64,000 nt of DNA from a phage, in the sequence record PQ826431.1. One strand, written 5' to 3'. The notes beneath the pieces were generated by a model. The model did not search any database. It was not told the DNA's origin and saw nothing but the letters and a program-made list of their open reading frames with translations. Shown piece by piece: positions 8,096 to 23,076 of this stretch. A program made the translations under genes and the position numbers. The stretch's first letter is position 1. The number at the start of each line of letters is the position of its first letter.

Positions 8096-8305
8096 TTATT
8101 CCTCCTTAATTATTTCAAACTTGGCAACACCATTTACAATAATATGACCACAAGACATAACTCCTAGCCAAGGATCGCCGTTTTTCTTCAGGCGTTTACC
8201 GAATACATCACAAAAACCATTCTTCATTTCGGAGGCTTCATAAGAAGCCCCTTTGTCAAAAACGTCTTTGAATGTGTCGATTATACCAACACATCTCAAA
8301 ATCAT
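8096..8305 (-). CDS. hypothetical protein (69 aa)
   Basis: Small ORF immediately upstream of nrdB (stop overlaps). Confidence 0.4.
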   Translation of the reverse strand: MILRCVGIIDTFKDVFDKGASYEASEMKNGFCDVFGKRLKKNGDPWLGVMSCGHIIVNGVAKFEIIKEE

Positions 8306-9390
8306 TAGAAGTCAAGCTCCTCATCATCAGAGAGATCTTTGTTAGCTGAATTCAATTTGTAGTTAGTTAACTGAATCTCTTGGGCTGCTGACTGAATCAA
8401 ATCAGGATTCAACCATTTTTCCATCCAAGCTAAAGGACTATGTTTAGGTGCTTTAAACTTAGCTTTCATTTTCAATCGACGATAAATAGGAGCAGCATTG
8501 AAATAAACCCACTGTTTAGACAATTCGGCGTTAAGACCTACAATAAAACGACCTTCACTAAACAGGTAGTCACACCACTGTTCCTCTTGTTCAACAACAG
8601 TGTCGAGGATCAAAGTCAACTCTTCAATATTGTCTTCGTAAATTTTACGCCAAATTGGGTCATGCATCAATGCATCAATTACAGCATAATCCATCTTAAC
8701 ATGCAAGATTTCATCTAGCATAATTTTCTGGATCAGTTTACAAGCCCCAACAAACAGTTGTTGTTCTGCCATAGCAAAAGTAGCAGAGAAGGAAGATATA
8801 AACTGAATACCTTCTAATCCAATCAGGGCTACCATCCCTTTAAGAATCAGCAGTCGAAGTTCATCGTTAGCTTCAATCAATCCTAGAGCATACTTATGAC
8901 CAGCTTCTTCCAACTGACCCATGATATCAGCAATGATACCCATACGATTGAAAATTTTATCATTAATCATAATCTGATTGATGACTTCAATTGGATCTGG
9001 AGTACATTGACGGATTATTTCAGAATACGTTAACGCATGGAGAACTTCCATTTCACTCTGCTTCATCATCATAGCACAGGCTTCATTGTTACTCAAGAAT
9101 GGAGAGAACAAAGTGATGATTGATTTTGCAAGAGAATCATTTTCCCATTGGAACGATAAGTTTTTAATCATAACATCATAGTTGTTTTTAGAACAAGCTA
9201 CGAAATCTTTACGTGTCTGATCCAGATTAACTTCGTTTTCATCCCAATCTTGTGCTTTTTGAAGTTTGTAGAGTTTGTGCATTTCTGGATAAGTTACGTT
9301 AACAGAATCAAAGATCCCTAATTGCTCCCCCAAAAATACTGGATATTTTCCTGTTTTGTAAACTTCATTGTGTAAATTAATTGCTGCCAT
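8305..9390 (-). CDS. nrdB: ribonucleotide reductase class Ia small subunit (NrdB)
   Basis: Ferritin-like di-iron blocks ('SEMEVLHALTYSEIIRQ', 'LIGLEGIQFISSFSATFA', 'DEILHVKMD'); acidic C-terminal tail typical of R2; preceded by hairpin plus GAGGAG RBS. Confidence 0.9.
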   Translation of the reverse strand: MAAINLHNEVYKTGKYPVFLGEQLGIFDSVNVTYPEMHKLYKLQKAQDWDENEVNLDQTRKDFVACSKNNYDVMIKNLSFQWENDSLAKSIITLFSPFLSNNEACAMMMKQSEMEVLHALTYSEIIRQCTPDPIEVINQIMINDKIFNRMGIIADIMGQLEEAGHKYALGLIEANDELRLLILKGMVALIGLEGIQFISSFSATFAMAEQQLFVGACKLIQKIMLDEILHVKMDYAVIDALMHDPIWRKIYEDNIEELTLILDTVVEQEEQWCDYLFSEGRFIVGLNAELSKQWVYFNAAPIYRRLKMKAKFKAPKHSPLAWMEKWLNPDLIQSAAQEIQLTNYKLNSANKDLSDDEELDF

Positions 9391-9433: not shown

Positions 9434-10087
9434 TTAGCCTCGAAATACTGTTTTTGTTTCCGCCAGGTGCCAATAGAAATCCGCCTTGTTTACAAGAGTG
9501 TTGTACACCTCTGGATAAAAATGTTCTTCCTCTTTGTAACGATCCGCTGTTTCCCTGATTGACTTAGCTTTATCTTTTAGCCAAGCGAAGTGTGCCTCTT
9601 CCTCTGTAGCGAAGTAACCTAAATGCTTTCCTTTGTGTCCAGATGATTTAGAAGAAATCTTACCATCGGATTTTCTTACAGTTACCCCTAAAAGGGATTT
9701 TCTTTCCGTCCTTTTTGAGTAACTTAACAGAGTATTCACATATGCTGGAACAAACCTACAATACGCTGGACAATAGACCGTATTACCTTCAAGTACAAGG
9801 TCTTTGTCCAGAACAAAGTTTGCTACAAAGTTTTCTTGATACCACATGTCGAAGTTTGAAAACATAAACCACTCGTCACAAACCGTCACACCTGTATACC
9901 CAGGTCTTGCTTGTTCCATTTTATAGGCTCTTTCGAACATGTTTTTCCAAGCTTTGTAAGACGGGTCTGGCTTCCCGTCTACAAATAATCGTCTTTCTAC
10001 ATCAACTACTAAGGGGATTTCTCCCCTTTCGGTAGTAACGGTCACTGCACGTTTACCTTTGAGCATTTGACCTCCTACATGCTGCAA
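9434..10087 (-). CDS. free-standing HNH-family homing endonuclease-like protein with AP2-like C-terminal DNA-binding region
   Basis: Located between nrdB and nrdA; shares 'CDEW..F.NF' block and C-terminal 'KGKHLGYFATEEEAHFAWLK' (AP2-like) with the paralog at 20446..21075. Confidence 0.55.
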   Translation of the reverse strand: MQHVGGQMLKGKRAVTVTTERGEIPLVVDVERRLFVDGKPDPSYKAWKNMFERAYKMEQARPGYTGVTVCDEWFMFSNFDMWYQENFVANFVLDKDLVLEGNTVYCPAYCRFVPAYVNTLLSYSKRTERKSLLGVTVRKSDGKISSKSSGHKGKHLGYFATEEEAHFAWLKDKAKSIRETADRYKEEEHFYPEVYNTLVNKADFYWHLAETKTVFRG

Positions 10088-12321
10088 CCCTCACATCCAG
10101 ACTCTTTCAGGTTATCTTCTTGTGCTAAAGAATCTGCTGATTTTGTTCTACTATTAAGGTAATACAATGACTTACCACCCAGTCTAGCAAAGTTCAAAAT
10201 AAATTTCATCTCTTCTTTAACTGATAAACGTCCCCCTACCAATTTAGAATAATCTAACCAAGAATCACAAGAAATTCCTTGGTCCGTAAACTTGGTAAAG
10301 ATACCATACATTTCTGCAAGATCTTTAGCCGGAGTATCCCAGGCAGATTGGTAGAACATTTTCAGTTTTTCATAGTCTGGAACAATAAATAATACACTGC
10401 CTTTCTGACTTTGTTTATACATAATGGTATCACGAACAGGATACAGAGAGTTAGTAGTATTGCTTACCAAACTGCTGGACTCATTAGGTGCAATAGCAGC
10501 CAAGACACTGTTACGGATACCACCTTGTTCAATGATTTCAGCACGTAAGCCTTCCCAGTCCATTTTAAGATCAAAATTACCGATACTATCTACTGTTTTA
10601 GCATAAGTGTCAATTGGTAGCCAACCTTGAGGCCATTTGGTCTTATCGATCCACTCCGCATTACCTTTTTCCTTAGCCAGACGCAGAGAGGCTTTTGCCA
10701 ACCAAAAGTAATGACGTTCTGCAAGTTCATGCATTAATTTTTTAGCATAAGCATCTGAATAATTTACAAAATTACTTGCCAAGTAATGCGCTAAGTTTGT
10801 AATGCCTACACCAATAGATCTACGTGCTTTAGCAGTTATTTCGTTATGTTTAAATGGATAATCCATTGTTTCAATAACGTTGTCAATTGTCAATACAGTG
10901 TAGTATGCAACATCTTCATATTCTTCAGGTAATACACGACCAGCAACAATAGAAGATAAGAAACATAAAGCCAATTCTTGATCTTCTGTATTCTCACCAG
11001 TAAAGAGATCCGGCATACTGTGGAAAGCTTTAGTTGGTAAGAAGATCTCTTGACACAGGTTTGATTGATACACCGTATCCAGGAAAGGTGTATGGTTGTT
11101 AACGTTGTCAGCAAAGAACATGTAAATACGTCCTGTTTCTGCACGTTGAACAATAATCTCTGTCAGAAGATCACGAGCCTTAACAAATTTTTTCTTAATG
11201 CGACGACGGCTTACTTTGTCATAAACTGCATCAAACTCTTCTTCACTTTTATACAAAGCTTCATAAAGTTCAGGAGCATCATCACAACTAACTAACATCC
11301 AATCTTCGTTTTTTGCTGCTCGACGCAAGAACGAACGGTTAACAACAATAGAATAATCCAGTTTGTCTACTCGTTTATCTATAGGTGTTGTTGGATTCTT
11401 CAGTCGAATCAGATCGTCGAAGTCTGGTTCAAGTATGGTAAAGGTAACTGTAGCACTACCTCCACGGCTTGCTTGCTTCGAAGCTCCAACACTATCTTCC
11501 ATCCATTTCAGATACGGAAGAAGACCACCATGAATAATACGATTATTCTTAACACCTTGACCTGTGGCACGAGTTTGAAGATTAACACCAATACCTGCGT
11601 TATTCAACGTATACTCATGAGCTAAGTAATTAGCAATGGCTAAAGATTCTGCCGTATCGTCTGCACGGAATAAACAACAAGACGCACTTCCTTTGATTGG
11701 AGTTCGTAGAGTTGTCAGATACGGCGATGGCAGATTAATCTTAAGATCGCTAACATAAGTATAAAGTTTTTTAATATCTTCTATACGGCGTTCTTTTGGT
11801 TGGATCTCCATAACCTTCATTGCGATACCAATGAAAAGAAACTGTGGAGACTCATGCACCACATCGTTTACTGCATCTCGAATAAGATATTTATCTACCA
11901 TCTGACGTAAAACAGAATAACCATAAGTTAGATTTTTATTATGCTTTACAATCTTACCGATTTCTTTGATCTCTTCATCAGTATAATCCATTTTAGCCCA
12001 ATGTCCACGTTCTACCATATCATGATAAAAGGTATTCAGTGAAGGGATACTGTGGTATCCCCCATGAGCCTGTTTGTAAATCATACCCAGAAGAAGTCTT
12101 CCTGCCATATCACTGTAAGCTTGTGTTTTCTTGTCAATACACGCTGCAATCATTGCTTTATGCAGATCACGTGTAGACACACCGTCATAACACCGCTTCA
12201 CAGCTTCTAATTCAATTTCAGACCAGTTTAGTTTACCTGCTGCAAATTCAGACCACTTGCGAAGTTTTTCTGGATTAAACTCCTCTGTCTTACCGTTAGA
12301 TTTAGTTACAAAACGAATCAA
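10075..12321 (-). CDS. nrdA: ribonucleotide reductase class Ia large subunit (NrdA) with N-terminal ATP cone
   Basis: 748 aa; blocks 'SASCCLF', 'ETGRIYMFFADNVNNHTPF', 'SNLCQEI', 'LALCFLSS', 'GIRNSVLAAIAPNESSS', 'KSLYYLNSRT' and C-terminal 'ESGCEGCSM' parallel E. coli NrdA. Confidence 0.95.
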   Translation of the reverse strand: MIRFVTKSNGKTEEFNPEKLRKWSEFAAGKLNWSEIELEAVKRCYDGVSTRDLHKAMIAACIDKKTQAYSDMAGRLLLGMIYKQAHGGYHSIPSLNTFYHDMVERGHWAKMDYTDEEIKEIGKIVKHNKNLTYGYSVLRQMVDKYLIRDAVNDVVHESPQFLFIGIAMKVMEIQPKERRIEDIKKLYTYVSDLKINLPSPYLTTLRTPIKGSASCCLFRADDTAESLAIANYLAHEYTLNNAGIGVNLQTRATGQGVKNNRIIHGGLLPYLKWMEDSVGASKQASRGGSATVTFTILEPDFDDLIRLKNPTTPIDKRVDKLDYSIVVNRSFLRRAAKNEDWMLVSCDDAPELYEALYKSEEEFDAVYDKVSRRRIKKKFVKARDLLTEIIVQRAETGRIYMFFADNVNNHTPFLDTVYQSNLCQEIFLPTKAFHSMPDLFTGENTEDQELALCFLSSIVAGRVLPEEYEDVAYYTVLTIDNVIETMDYPFKHNEITAKARRSIGVGITNLAHYLASNFVNYSDAYAKKLMHELAERHYFWLAKASLRLAKEKGNAEWIDKTKWPQGWLPIDTYAKTVDSIGNFDLKMDWEGLRAEIIEQGGIRNSVLAAIAPNESSSLVSNTTNSLYPVRDTIMYKQSQKGSVLFIVPDYEKLKMFYQSAWDTPAKDLAEMYGIFTKFTDQGISCDSWLDYSKLVGGRLSVKEEMKFILNFARLGGKSLYYLNSRTKSADSLAQEDNLKESGCEGCSM

Positions 12322-19507: not shown

Positions 19508-20233
19508 TTACTTGTTAATAATACCTGCGATATTAGGTTTAATGAAACCTGACCACTTCATGATCTTACCTTTATCATCAAAGAACACATACACTTTCTG
19601 TTTTTCATTATAAACGGCATGAACACCAGTGTATGCCCCTTCTGGACGATTGGCATTTCGTTCTTCAATTGAAGCGCATTCTTGTGCAATGGCTGAATCG
19701 ATATCTGAAGTTTTCCAAGTTTTCAGCAACTGTTGTTTAGTTGGATACTTGGAATCATTACTTTTCAATACCTCTTTAATAACTTTCTTTTCTGGATATT
19801 TTGAACGGATTAGAGTGTCACGAGACATACGCATGATACCAGCAGCCATTAGTGCCATTTGAACTGGCTCTGTAAATGTTTGTTCCAAAGCATCAAAATC
19901 AGTATACACAGTTGGAGTAAAAACATCGCCTACAGCATAGTCCAAGAAATTCATCGTATGTTCTTCACCAAAGAACATGTAAGTAAGATAACTGGATACT
20001 ACAAAAATATCCGCTGCTGCATCCAAGAGTTCTACATGATCGTTTACTTTCGCGGCTGTTTCATACTCTTTAAGCTCTTCACGAACGAACCCGATTTGGG
20101 ACATAAATAGCTCTTGAGTGAATTCAGGTTGTTCACCACCTCGTGCTTTGGCATTCCAATCAATTACGTGCTTTGCTGCATTTTTGAAAAATTCAGTATC
20201 GAATTTAATATCTTTAAAAAAATTCTCGATCAT
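19508..20233 (-). CDS. hypothetical protein, possibly MazG-like all-alpha NTP pyrophosphohydrolase
   Basis: 'REELKEYETAAKVNDHVELLDAAADIF' resembles the EExxE...ExxD metal-binding pattern; weak. Confidence 0.3.
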   Translation of the reverse strand: MIENFFKDIKFDTEFFKNAAKHVIDWNAKARGGEQPEFTQELFMSQIGFVREELKEYETAAKVNDHVELLDAAADIFVVSSYLTYMFFGEEHTMNFLDYAVGDVFTPTVYTDFDALEQTFTEPVQMALMAAGIMRMSRDTLIRSKYPEKKVIKEVLKSNDSKYPTKQQLLKTWKTSDIDSAIAQECASIEERNANRPEGAYTGVHAVYNEKQKVYVFFDDKGKIMKWSGFIKPNIAGIINK

Positions 20234-20242
20234 TGTTTCTCC

Positions 20243-20434
20243 TTATTTAAAATATTGTTTTGTAAATTCCACCAGATATACAACAACTGCACCCATTTGT
20301 GTACCTGCTGCACCGTAGACAATAATTAGACTAACCTTCTGCCACCATGTTGGGTGAGGGAAAGTTGATGCGCCAATTATACCACAAGCAACAATAGAAA
20401 GGAACACAAGAACCAGAATAACTTCAATGCTCAC
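20243..20434 (-). CDS. small membrane protein (two predicted TM helices), holin-like candidate
   Basis: 63 aa, hydrophobic stretches 'VILVLVFLSIVACGIIGA' and 'VSLIIVYGAAGTQMGAVVVYLV'; function not established. Confidence 0.35.
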   Translation of the reverse strand: MSIEVILVLVFLSIVACGIIGASTFPHPTWWQKVSLIIVYGAAGTQMGAVVVYLVEFTKQYFK

Positions 20435-20445
20435 TGCAACCTCCT

Positions 20446-21075
20446 TTATGTTTTAATCTTGCCAAAATACAATACTTCAGCTTCCTGTCTTGCTGATATA
20501 GCATCTTCAATATCAGTAAATGCTCCAAGACGGATATCTTTTCCTTGATAGGATATACGAGCAATCCATCTTTTTTCTTTCTCGCTCCACACAACACCTG
20601 TTTTACCAGAAGTGTTGTTTTTCTGTTTTCGTGTATTGTATGACTGGACAGACCTTGTAGCCCAGCGACAATTTTCTTTACTGTAATCTTTTTCCGAGTC
20701 TATTCTGTCAAGAGATAAACCTTTAGGTCTATCTCCCATATCCTCAAAAAATGCAGAGAATGAATTTCTCCAAGCATCGCAGACCTTAATACCACGACCA
20801 CCGTAGTATTCAAAGTGAGTATTGTTTTTGTTATAGCATCTCCCTAACATAGCTTCCCACGATTTGTATGCTCCTGTTTGTGTTGTTTGCGGTCTACACT
20901 TCGAACAATAAGAACTTTTATTCTTCCTAAGTGTTGCCATAGTTACCGTGCAAATATTACCACAATCACAAGAACAAGTAAAACGTCTTTTGCCATGCTT
21001 GTCCCTTTCAATCTCTTCTAAGACAGTATAACAACCACATTTCTTACCTACAAGGTCTACTCTCTTGGCTCCCAT
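20446..21075 (-). CDS. HNH homing endonuclease with N-terminal zinc finger and C-terminal AP2-like domain
   Basis: 'LSLDRIDSEKDYSKENCRWATRSVQSYN' (HNH_3-type motif), 'YYGGRGIKVCDAWRNSF', C-terminal 'GVVWSEKEKRWIARISYQGKDIRLGAFTDIEDAISARQEAE' (AP2-like). Confidence 0.7.
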   Translation of the reverse strand: MGAKRVDLVGKKCGCYTVLEEIERDKHGKRRFTCSCDCGNICTVTMATLRKNKSSYCSKCRPQTTQTGAYKSWEAMLGRCYNKNNTHFEYYGGRGIKVCDAWRNSFSAFFEDMGDRPKGLSLDRIDSEKDYSKENCRWATRSVQSYNTRKQKNNTSGKTGVVWSEKEKRWIARISYQGKDIRLGAFTDIEDAISARQEAEVLYFGKIKT

Positions 21076-22184
21076 GTTCCCTCCACCATTTCCCGTAAAC
21101 GGACACCTGTTGGTTTAGTAGGTATTCCACCATCAGAAAACTCTTCATACTCAATCTCAACAAATTTACCAATTAACATTTCGGCATTCTCTGCTTTACG
21201 ATAATTGATAGTCTCATGAGCATCTTTACGCATTAAGAATTCGACTACTTTACCATTTTCCATCTCACCTGTCAACACTCCATCGCCATTTTTATCACTT
21301 TTTGAATTTGTTACTTTAACTTCAAGGGTGTGGCGAGGCTTACGTTTAATAACGTCATAAGAACGTTTATCAAATTCGTAAACTCCGTGAGCATTACGAT
21401 ATACTACACCTTCAGCTTTCTCAAGTAAAGCTTTTTCATAGAAAGCATCAAACTGTTCTTGGTTTTCAATATACTCTGTATGAACTACGCAAATAAGCTC
21501 GTCAAGACCATAATCTTCAACTACTGCCTTAAGAGCAGTAAGAACATCAACACGTTTTTCAAACGGTAGATCTGGAACTGGAATATCGTATACGTAATAG
21601 TTCAGCAAAGGTGTATTTGCATTATGCTTCTTCCAGGCACTGTTAATTTGTTGTAGACTAAGGACACCTAACCCAGCAAACACTTCACCATCAAGAGGAT
21701 GACCAACAACTTCACTAATAAAGTTTGGAATACCTTTCCAATGAGGTGGCAGGTTGTACACTTCCCCAGCTTTTGATAAACACTCTCCTTTCATGTTAAT
21801 CATAGAACGTAACCCGTTCAGTTTGTATTGTGCATAACCAGGGAACACAACCCTTTCAGGATAATCTTTATAATCCTGGCATTTCATTGGTGTGGAAGGA
21901 ACATGGTTTTCAGCTTCTTCTTTTGTTTTATAATAGCCATTCTTTAACTGTTTTGTCCATTTGGCAAAAGCTTCAAGTTCAGCTTGTTCTTCTGGTGTTG
22001 TTTCATTGGAACGACCAATGTTTTTTGCTTCTGCTGTATAAGATTTTTCTGTGATTTTTCCACCTACCCTTCCATGAGCTACAGTAACAACTGCACCATC
22101 TGTATACACTGTCCACTGTTTAAGTTTTCCTTTTGAATCTTTACCATACAGCGTTTGATTTGTTTGTTGCATTAGTCCTCCCAC
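21057..22184 (-). CDS. nucleotidyltransferase-superfamily ligase (DNA ligase-like)
   Basis: Motif I 'KLNGLR' (KxDG-type with N), motif III 'DGEVF', motif IV 'EGVVYR', motif V 'VIKRK'. Confidence 0.6.
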   Translation of the reverse strand: MGGLMQQTNQTLYGKDSKGKLKQWTVYTDGAVVTVAHGRVGGKITEKSYTAEAKNIGRSNETTPEEQAELEAFAKWTKQLKNGYYKTKEEAENHVPSTPMKCQDYKDYPERVVFPGYAQYKLNGLRSMINMKGECLSKAGEVYNLPPHWKGIPNFISEVVGHPLDGEVFAGLGVLSLQQINSAWKKHNANTPLLNYYVYDIPVPDLPFEKRVDVLTALKAVVEDYGLDELICVVHTEYIENQEQFDAFYEKALLEKAEGVVYRNAHGVYEFDKRSYDVIKRKPRHTLEVKVTNSKSDKNGDGVLTGEMENGKVVEFLMRKDAHETINYRKAENAEMLIGKFVEIEYEEFSDGGIPTKPTGVRLREMVEGTWEPRE

Positions 22185-22393
22185 TTAAAAACTGAAATTT
22201 TCAATCTGTTACACACTTCATCCAAATCTGCGTCGAGTAACGTTGTAGATGTTGCCAACATATAATCAATGCTTGTGAAACCTTGCCCTTTGGCATAGTC
22301 AAGCATATCTTCATACATATCTTCAAGATCACCGTCATCAAAAGTAGCTAGAAAATCCTCGTCCCCGCTACGAACATAAAATGCAGTACTCAT
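22172..22393 (-). CDS. hypothetical acidic protein (73 aa)
   Basis: Small ORF in array. Confidence 0.4.
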   Translation of the reverse strand: MSTAFYVRSGDEDFLATFDDGDLEDMYEDMLDYAKGQGFTSIDYMLATSTTLLDADLDEVCNRLKISVFKWED

Positions 22394-22578
22394 TCATCTT
22401 CATCCCAAGATTCACAAGCACAACAATCATAGATTTCTATAATACCAGTACGTCCACAAGAAAGGCAAGTGATTTTATCACCGTAGAATACATAATTCTC
22501 GTCTCCGTTGGTATTCACGGAAATCAGATCACTGCCACAGGGACATTCCAACCAAGGCACAATGATATCTTTCTTCAT
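22390..22578 (-). CDS. hypothetical zinc-ribbon protein (62 aa)
   Basis: CxC...CxxC pattern ('ECPCGSD...CLSCG'). Confidence 0.4.
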   Translation of the reverse strand: MKKDIIVPWLECPCGSDLISVNTNGDENYVFYGDKITCLSCGRTGIIEIYDCCACESWDEDE

Positions 22579-22749
22579 GTTTTCTCCTTAACCTTTAGGT
22601 GTGCAGAATCCACGATCAAATACATTCTTACGGATGCCTTCTGCTAAAGCCATCTCACAAGCCCCTTGCGATCCGAATTCTTGTGTATAATCATTACTAC
22701 CATGACTCCAAAGAGCAAACAAAATATAGATTGTTGCCATTTTTCCTCC

Positions 22750-23076
22750 TTAAGCATTCAGTTCGCTGTTGAGTTCATATATCTCCTCTTGAAGAGAATA
22801 GATCTCTTCCTCCAAACGGGAGATCTCTTCTTTTAGATATACCATTTCGGATTCTTTCTCTTCTAATTCATTTTCAAATTTTACTTTATTAGCCTCATTT
22901 TCATAATGCAGTTCAGCGTAATCATCACGCATTTGTTCAATAAGATGAATCAGAGACAAGATATAATTGTCTCCCGTTTCATCACACCACTCTTCACCGT
23001 GACGGAGAACGGTAATTCGTCCAGTATCTTCATCTAAAATTGTCTCATATTTACAATCATCTGTATAAATCTGCAT
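22750..23076 (-). CDS. hypothetical coiled-coil protein (108 aa)
   Basis: C-terminal heptad-rich region 'EEISRLEEEIYSLQEEIYELNSEL'. Confidence 0.45.
   Translation of the reverse strand: MQIYTDDCKYETILDEDTGRITVLRHGEEWCDETGDNYILSLIHLIEQMRDDYAELHYENEANKVKFENELEEKESEMVYLKEEISRLEEEIYSLQEEIYELNSELNA

Follow-up and report, generated by a model that had tools for sequence, protein, structure and literature searches.

What kind of gene has settled at the junction of a DNA ligase gene and a small hydrophobic-protein gene in a phage genome, and how did it get there? The DNA considered here is a 64,000-nt stretch of the phage record PQ826431.1 (the window; all coordinates are window positions), and the gene in question is an open reading frame (ORF) at 20446-21075 that a first-pass annotation had called an HNH-AP2 homing endonuclease. 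In the following it is termed HEG, for homing endonuclease gene. The HEG has moved very recently between two genera of E. coli phages, from Justusliebigvirus to Phapecoctavirus, and its mobility is well supported. It is quite likely a genuine free-standing homing endonuclease gene at the ligase/small-gene junction with a nuclease core of the PacI type, and homing would lie behind the patch of foreign DNA in which it is embedded. The features on which this reading is built are:

20446-21075, minus strand: HEG, a likely free-standing homing endonuclease gene with ATG start, 209 aa (phrog_374; AlphaFold2 model; sporadic carriage)
20235-21183, no strand assigned: transferred patch of 949 nt, the HEG with its co-transferred flanks on a Phapecoctavirus backbone, delimited by sliding identity
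20243-20434, minus strand: small hydrophobic-protein gene, 192 nt, 63 aa (phrog_19851), a divergent allele travelling with the HEG
21057-22172, minus strand: ATP-dependent DNA ligase gene, the host gene beside the insertion site, 371 aa as annotated in relatives (PF01068, phrog_114)

The HEG cannot be a chance reading frame because it matches phrog_374 ('HNH endonuclease') of the PHROGs database with an E-value of 1e-72 and very many proteins besides, at least 7,988 at E<=1e-3 in a word-indexed search. Its GC content does not set it apart (0.381, compared with 0.38 for the ligase gene). The neighbours are those that the first-pass annotation had named, a small membrane protein gene, which belongs to phrog_19851, and a DNA ligase-like gene, whose ORF matches PF01068 (E 1.5e-9) and phrog_114 (E 1.7e-74). 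The 19-nt overlap of HEG and ligase had also been read correctly, with the ligase stop codon TAG at 21057-21059 and the HEG start codon ATG at 21073-21075. In the mechanical ORF list the ligase begins with GTG (21057-22184, 375 aa), while all annotated relatives start with ATG and have 371 aa. Downstream of the HEG, the 63-aa hydrophobic ORF is followed by a gene for a MazG-like pyrophosphohydrolase, and the surrounding DNA-metabolism operon further encodes an RdgC-like exonuclease, the DNA ligase, an RNA ligase, and a polynucleotide kinase.

The first indication that the HEG is a mobile gene comes from its distribution. In a collection of 50,697 phage records, HEG DNA is present in six, which represent the four phages PaulScherrer, VEcB, muut, and ESCO8. 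All HEG-carrying isolates are Justusliebigvirus. The gene is found in four distinct phages among 127 matching isolate records, and it is absent from the other about 120 Stephanstirmvirinae records that match the flanks. Within Justusliebigvirus, the same six records of about 56 at 95-99% identity contain it. The flanks in the window are instead about 97% identical to isolates of Phapecoctavirus (ZCKP1, anhysbys, and phAPEC8-like phages), and the flank-matching Phapecoctavirus isolate records all lack the HEG ORF, matching with 72% coverage in two pieces. In public assemblies, the identical 209-aa protein is encoded at about 13 places of Phapecoctavirus type and about 10 of Justusliebigvirus type. 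The empty sites are precise, the gap between small gene and ligase gene being 8 nt in phi92 (contig L007, 1213-1220) and 53 nt in ZCKP1 (L002, 1527-1579), and in anhysbys the site is occupied by an unrelated hydrophobic ORF of 64 aa, gp213 (L001, 1523-1717). Because these HEG-minus junctions differ in content, the small-gene/ligase junction is a hot spot for insertions and deletions independent of the HEG. Mapped for presence and absence across related phages, as the first-pass annotation had suggested, the HEG is rare and sporadic, and the locus is clearly not universally conserved.

The second indication is the footprint of the transfer itself. Inside the patch, sliding identity is 96-100% to the HEG-plus Justusliebigvirus phages and 0-74% to Phapecoctavirus, whereas just outside it is 98-100% to Phapecoctavirus and 50-88% to Justusliebigvirus. 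The patch contains the HEG, the entire 192-nt small gene, and 127 nt of the 3' end of the ligase gene, meaning that about 320 bp of neighbouring DNA moved together with the HEG. Compared with Justusliebigvirus-type metagenomic contigs encoding the identical protein, the patch shows only five to eight differences in 951 positions, and the HEG alone a single one in 630, while the adjoining flanks differ from the same contigs at 307 of 782 (39%) and about 163 of 951 positions (17%), respectively. The left crossover lies within a shared 19-mer, AAAAAAATTCTCGATCATT (20216-20234), and the right one within GCATT (21184-21188). The small-gene allele in the patch has only about 30% amino acid identity (estimated by eye) to gp212 of anhysbys and gp090 of phi92, with which it shares the end ...YFK*. 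The ligase segment of the cassette at 21100-21150 is 92-94% identical to phi92 but 74% to Phapecoctavirus. The cassette thus stems from a Justusliebigvirus-like source, which makes the Phapecoctavirus copy the derived one. To the HEG-minus Justusliebigvirus phages, too, the cassette is foreign over nearly the same interval (PaulScherrer compared with phi92), which implies an earlier entry from another lineage. An 83%-identical homolog (P0002) is found in the same gene arrangement with the same 19-nt overlap and a downstream gene of 65 aa. The active mobile-element traffic that the first-pass annotation had suggested is therefore better supported than by the evidence it offered, namely by variable presence among close relatives and by an inter-genus footprint with co-transferred flanks.

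The right-hand part of the patch reaches into the coding sequence of the ligase and has altered it. Two further features describe this region:

21057-21183, minus strand: 3' end of the ligase gene in recoded form, transferred along with the HEG, identified by comparison with HEG-minus alleles
21057-21084, minus strand: predicted translation-initiation region of the HEG in the last ligase codons, with GGAGG at 21080-21084, ATG at 21073-21075, and the ligase TAG at 21057-21059

The C-terminus of the ligase reads ...AEMLIGK...REMVEGTWEPRE in HEG-plus phages and ...ASTLINQ...REMIPGTWEPAE in HEG-minus phages. In the HEG-minus phages of both genera, the ligase ends with ...M-I-P-G-T-W-E-P-A-E*, encoded by ATGATyCCAGGTACTTGGGAACCAGCAGArTAA, and in the HEG-plus phages with ...M-V-E-G-T-W-E-P-R-E*. 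The HEG-minus codons ATGATyCCAGGTACTTGG (IPGTW) contain neither a Shine-Dalgarno sequence nor the ATG of the HEG. The GGAGG arises through the codon changes from IPG to VEG, 4 nt ahead of the new ATG, and the ATG arises through a synonymous change from ACT to ACA. The initiation signals of the invader have thus been written into the host's ligase gene. Directly after the HEG stop codon TAA follows an AGGAGG for the GTG start of the small gene. The region does not contain more promoter-like sites than expected by chance (nine compared with 9.2), and in the absence of a dedicated promoter above chance the simplest reading is that the HEG is probably co-transcribed with the ligase operon. The three terminator-like sites (1.5 expected) are all on the plus strand, opposite to the genes of the HEG region, and an RNA hairpin that would hide the ribosome-binding site of the HEG is not supported (z = 0.14). 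In total, there are 17 HEG-plus-specific substitutions in the ligase gene, in clusters at 21064-21086 and 21141-21183. Both clusters and the replaced small gene are candidate target or immunity determinants.

Which enzyme does the HEG encode? The AlphaFold2 model, for which an alignment of 67 members was used as input, has a pLDDT of 92.5 and divides the protein into three parts, the second of which contains the putative active site:

20890-21048, minus strand: N-terminal Cys4 zinc ribbon, about residues 10-62, with C36, C38, C57, and C60 invariant and three strands in the model
20611-20889, minus strand: predicted nuclease core of about 95 aa, about residues 63-155, consisting of a helical part and a beta-beta-alpha unit
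20635-20715, minus strand: predicted beta-beta-alpha active-site motif, residues 121-147, D123 R124 x D126 ... Y131 ... N135 C R W ... Q144 .. N147
20458-20610, minus strand: C-terminal AP2/ERF-type DNA-binding domain, about residues 156-206

The two outer parts agree with the earlier description of a Cys4 zinc finger and an AP2-like C-terminal domain. The four cysteines C36, C38, C57, and C60 are unchanged in all 67 aligned homologs, the other invariant residues in this alignment being R79, G95, I96, W102, D112, R124, Y131, N135, C136, W138, G157, and G160. The strands of the zinc ribbon comprise residues 16-22, 31-36, and 41-45 in the model, the segment has a weak likeness to the zinc ribbon of bL31 (E 0.008 in a search of PDB sequences), and some homologs carry two to three copies of the Cys4 module. 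The C-terminal part (residues 161-204) is modelled as a three-stranded sheet and a helix, as expected for AP2. The family profile matches the AP2 protein WRI1 in the PDB (E 5.7e-6), and while the window protein itself lacks a match to Pfam AP2, 19 of 42 homologs have one.

The nuclease core in the middle was more difficult to assign. The first-pass annotation had classified it as HNH_3-type based on the motif LSLDRIDSEKDYSKENCRWAT...N, and this string is present at residues 120-147. However, no HNH model of Pfam or NCBIfam matches the HEG protein, its sub-domains, or any of 41 scanned homologs. A Pfam scan of the window protein and its sub-domains gave no matches at E<=1 to 10, and none of the 42 family members scanned matches any HNH model at E<=0.01. 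Conservation was counted in 438 copies of the core domain, which were extracted from 262 proteins and include the best matches of an exhaustive search. At position 124, the end of the first strand, where HNH nucleases have the His acting as general base, 427 copies have Arg and none has His. Since this position is Arg throughout the family, the loss of His is a property of the family and not a decay of the window copy. With respect to the HNH catalytic residues, the alignment gives a divided answer, because the motif aligns but its general-base His is replaced by an invariant Arg. A canonical HNH_3-AP2 homing endonuclease of the I-HmuI/HNN type with a standard His as general base would agree with the name 'HNH endonuclease' in PHROGs and RefSeq, with the AP2 domain, and with the resemblance of NCRWAT...N to the NLRW...N boxes of HNN-AP2 proteins (PMC2248197), but it is contradicted at the very residue that defines this type, and we consider it highly improbable. 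From the earlier assignment, the free-standing, mobile endonuclease-type gene with AP2 and Cys4 modules remains; the HNH core does not.

The other residues of the motif are well conserved: N135 is Asn in 434 of the 438 copies and W138 Trp in 435, Y131 is Tyr in 408 and Phe in 28, D123 is Asp in 318 and Glu in 46, Q144 is Gln in 350, and N147 is Asn in 364. In the predicted model, the beta-beta-alpha unit consists of strands 121-124 and 136-139 and helix 141-146 (pLDDT >90), and the closest structural neighbour of the modelled core is PacI. This restriction enzyme, a well-known exception among His-Me finger nucleases, lacks the catalytic His as well. A Tyr of its inter-strand loop acts instead, and one Asp and one Asn serve as metal ligands (PMC5714182, PMC4081073, PMC3384342). 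PacI belongs to group 20 of the His-Me finger nucleases of Jablonska et al. 2017 (PMC5714182). Its active site is described here according to the reviews PMC5714182 and PMC4081073, and its sequence was verified in the PDB (3LDY_A residues 73-136). PacI D92-R-S-D-S-F-E-G-Y100-S-P-Q-N104-A-R-L-A108 can be aligned without gaps to D123-R-I-D-S-E-K-D-Y131-S-K-E-N135-C-R-W-A139, and nine of 17 residues agree, among them the Asp-Arg pair, the Tyr of the loop, and the structural Asn. The spacings of Asp, Arg, Tyr, and Asn (+1, +8, +12) are the same in both proteins. This register is also chosen by hhalign, over 20 columns (E 0.0026) and at a probability of only 11.5%, which is low because the matching stretch is short. 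When the protein, its motif segment, and the family profile were run against the PDB with phmmer and hmmsearch, neither PacI nor another nuclease was retrieved, only AP2 domains and the weak bL31 likeness. Thus, the core is probably a His-less, PacI-like beta-beta-alpha-Me domain and not HNH_3, and the protein probably works as a nuclease like PacI does. In such an active site, Asp123 together with Asn147 or Gln144 would hold the metal, Tyr131 of the loop would stand in for the missing general-base His, and Arg124 would fill the His position as Arg93 does in PacI. The cysteines C80, C99, and C136, which are conserved in 420, 374, and 385 copies, respectively, might form a structural metal site similar to the zinc sites of PacI.

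The missing catalytic His could also be taken to mean that the HEG protein is a dead relic that now acts as a sequence-specific DNA-binding or regulatory protein, with the patch having been spread by ordinary recombination or by selection on linked genes. Two other His-less groups of His-Me fingers have indeed been judged inactive (PMC5714182), and many relatives have two to three tandem cores, an uncommon arrangement for a nuclease domain. However, a very large family shows strong conservation at D123, Y131, N135, Q144, and N147, as is expected of an active site, and these residues match the His-less but active site of PacI. Neither would a relic easily explain a gene that is rare and sporadic with precise empty sites, a foreign patch that is centred on this gene with short flanks on both sides, and the same protein on two backbones whose adjacent flanks differ by 17-39%. 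We therefore regard a dead relic as rather unlikely.

If the HEG encodes an active homing endonuclease, its spread can be imagined as follows. During co-infection, the HEG protein would recognise a site in the HEG-less allele, by means of the AP2 domain and possibly aided by the zinc ribbon, and would cut this allele at the target, which would most likely be located in or near the last approximately 130 nt of the ligase gene or in the adjacent small gene. Repair from the HEG-carrying genome would copy the HEG together with short flanking tracts, and the substitutions in the copied tracts should shield the recipient from renewed cutting. The 949-nt patch in the window, a near-identical Justusliebigvirus cassette in a Phapecoctavirus genome, is the product expected from such homing. 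It is also conceivable that the nuclease is active but mainly serves another role than its own homing, such as the marker exclusion of HEG-less ligase alleles or the initiation of recombination. Free-standing endonucleases of T4 cause marker exclusion, and the location of the HEG in a DNA-metabolism operon would be in agreement with such a role. However, the HEG is dispensable, being absent from about 95% of the related isolates, and in mechanistic terms marker exclusion and homing are one event, so that the two readings differ mostly in emphasis. A main role outside of homing seems unlikely to us.

Several points speak against homing by a PacI-type endonuclease. Among the copies examined, there is no case of independent homing into Phapecoctavirus with other tract lengths. 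All share the edges of the patch, and thus they derive from one transfer that has since spread and not from repeated homing. Phage genomes are mosaic anyway, and the presence of another foreign patch at 22400-22750 would fit a spread of the HEG, as an active gene or as a relic, by ordinary recombination. The terminus of the ligase is not unusually conserved between the HEG-minus phages of the two genera (91% compared with a mean of 83 +/- 8%, with 77 of 361 windows being as high), and because this conservation is unremarkable the target site remains a guess. PacI (PDB 3LDY/3M7K), a type II restriction enzyme, works as a stand-alone homodimer, lacks an AP2 domain, and has two Cys4 zinc sites within the nuclease domain itself. 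In the HEG protein, by contrast, the zinc ribbon is a module of its own at the N-terminus, the C-terminus is formed by the AP2 domain, and the core has only three conserved cysteines, with no clear counterpart of the two zinc sites. In addition, Gln144 (350 copies) is found at the spacing of PacI N113 (N104+9), and N147 follows three residues further on. Because of the absent Cys4 sites and the Gln at this position, the core is not filed as an established member of the PacI family. Finally, the literature that we searched contains no cleavage assay for the HEG protein or any other family member.

Compared with the Phapecoctavirus relatives anhysbys and ZCKP1, the patch at 22400-22750 is foreign DNA, with an identity of 0-0.58 per 50 nt. 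It covers two ORFs on the minus strand, a Cys-rich one of 62 aa (22390-22578) and one of 50 aa (22588-22740). It represents another mosaic replacement, and no endonuclease gene is visible inside.

As a genuine homing endonuclease with a PacI-type core, the HEG protein would combine properties of several known systems. The HNH(N)-AP2 phage homing endonucleases, for which Magnani et al. 2004 is reportedly the source, share with it the free-standing gene, the order of nuclease and AP2 domain, the sporadic distribution, and the presence of several copies per genome. Such endonucleases have been described in RB49, RB16, RB43, JSE, Xp10/Xop411, and T5 (PMC2993671, PMC2248197). They carry an Asp/His pair and match HNH_3 (PMC2248197), in contrast to the HEG family with its invariant Arg and no HNH match. 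The HEG family is also set apart from them by its helical N-terminal extension, W..M..RC...YGGRGI.VC..W, which can be superposed on PacI. I-HmuI (PDB 1U3E), the prototype of HNH_3, is a phage homing endonuclease that, like the HEG protein, combines a beta-beta-alpha-Me core with modular DNA-binding domains, and we take the spacing of its motif, D-x ... N-x-R-W ... N, to be similar to that of the HEG protein. The free-standing endonucleases MobE (between nrdA and nrdB), SegF, and SegG of T4 are known for co-conversion and marker exclusion. Like the HEG they are located between conserved DNA-metabolism genes, are sporadic, and are transferred with flanking polymorphisms, but they are nucleases of other families, canonical HNH or GIY-YIG, for which experiments have proven both activity and targets, while the HEG is known from sequence. 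The categories of free-standing T4 endonucleases are listed in PMC2993671. A parallel with respect to PacI is an endonuclease hidden in a methylase insertion of phage Pacc40, which gave BLAST matches to an 'AP2 domain-containing protein' and was superposed on PacI 3LDY (PMC11855218, 2025). This endonuclease is encoded inside a gene in an alternative frame and the Tyr-for-His site was not discussed, in contrast to the free-standing HEG, and the two are likened here by description, not by sequence. The parallel suggests that the Pacc40 endonuclease is a homing element from the HEG family or from one related to it.

The window contains a second, more distant member of the family:

9434-10087, minus strand: distant second family member, between nrdA (10075-12321) and nrdB (8305-9390) (phrog_953, phrog_374)

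Its ORF matches phrog_953 (E 2.8e-57) and phrog_374 (E 5.4e-41), and the site between nrdA and nrdB is that of mobE in T4. The first-pass annotation had interpreted the two genes as paralogs and had proposed their pairwise alignment. They are homologous over the core and the AP2 domain, but the term paralog is overstated given an identity of about 24-28%: tblastn aligns the two with 23.6% identity (E 0.006), and hhalign aligns the copy to the family profile with a probability of 97.2% (E 3.8e-11, 28% identity over core and AP2). In this protein, the core and an AP2-like domain are present and the zinc ribbon is missing, and in the core R124 is replaced by Lys, N135 by Tyr, Q144 by Leu, and N147 by Ser, while Y131 is kept. 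The copy may be degenerating, or its specificity may have changed. The gene is present in 15 of 79 related records, and most of the others show a clean gap of about 650 bp. The two genes are not recent duplicates and are probably distant members of the family that arrived independently. A third copy was not found in the window by tblastn and a local HMM search.

The family to which both belong is very large. An exhaustive phmmer search with the 99-aa core resulted in 111,265 cluster representatives at E<=1e-3 and 77,997 at E<=1e-10, yet a Pfam model for the core of this family of more than 100,000 sequence clusters does not exist. The best-scoring proteins carry two to four tandem cores, and among the 262 family proteins 142 have two copies and 17 have three. 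These tandem-core proteins could be pseudo-dimers formed by a single chain, one half of which is inactive. Distant homologs occupy unrelated loci in other phages, and matches to the core in BFVD come from Erwinia and Pseudomonas jumbo phages, Twort, SEP9, mycobacteriophage Courthouse, Aeromonas phage CC2, and Bacillus phages. They bear such inconsistent names as 'HNH endonuclease', 'AP2/ERF domain-containing protein', 'HTH homing endonuclease', and 'DNA-binding domain protein'. On one contig (L018, 6029-6577), a homolog (P0029) directly follows a dCMP deaminase gene, and a canonical Pfam HNH_3 protein is encoded three genes downstream, so that both types of endonucleases co-occur in one DNA-metabolism cluster. 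Our literature searches retrieved neither a characterised family member nor a paper on the HEG locus at the ligase junction. As a tentative generalisation, this very large family as a whole could consist of phage homing endonucleases with a PacI-like, histidine-free active site, in which Tyr131 would be the general base or even a covalent nucleophile.

Free-standing HEGs are already known to be common in phages, and this one is annotated as 'HNH endonuclease' in RefSeq. If neither the inter-genus event nor the PacI-type chemistry held, it would be an ordinary free-standing phage HEG. What the locus offers beyond this is a clean and datable natural case of a HEG crossing a genus boundary, with crossovers mapped to within 5-19 nt. 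Because isolates with (PaulScherrer, muut, VEcB) and without the HEG (phi92, anhysbys) exist, a system is ready for studying homing, co-conversion, and marker exclusion in E. coli phages of the type used in therapy. The label 'HNH endonuclease' on a very large phage family probably hides a PacI-type chemistry with Tyr in place of His, and if this is true the annotation would be corrected. The family would then also be a new source of compact, modular site-specific nucleases composed of an AP2 domain, a zinc ribbon, and a small core. Tyr-dependent beta-beta-alpha-Me catalysis, so far represented by one rare-cutting restriction enzyme and a few homologs from giant viruses, would be among the commonest nuclease chemistries in the mobile elements of phages.

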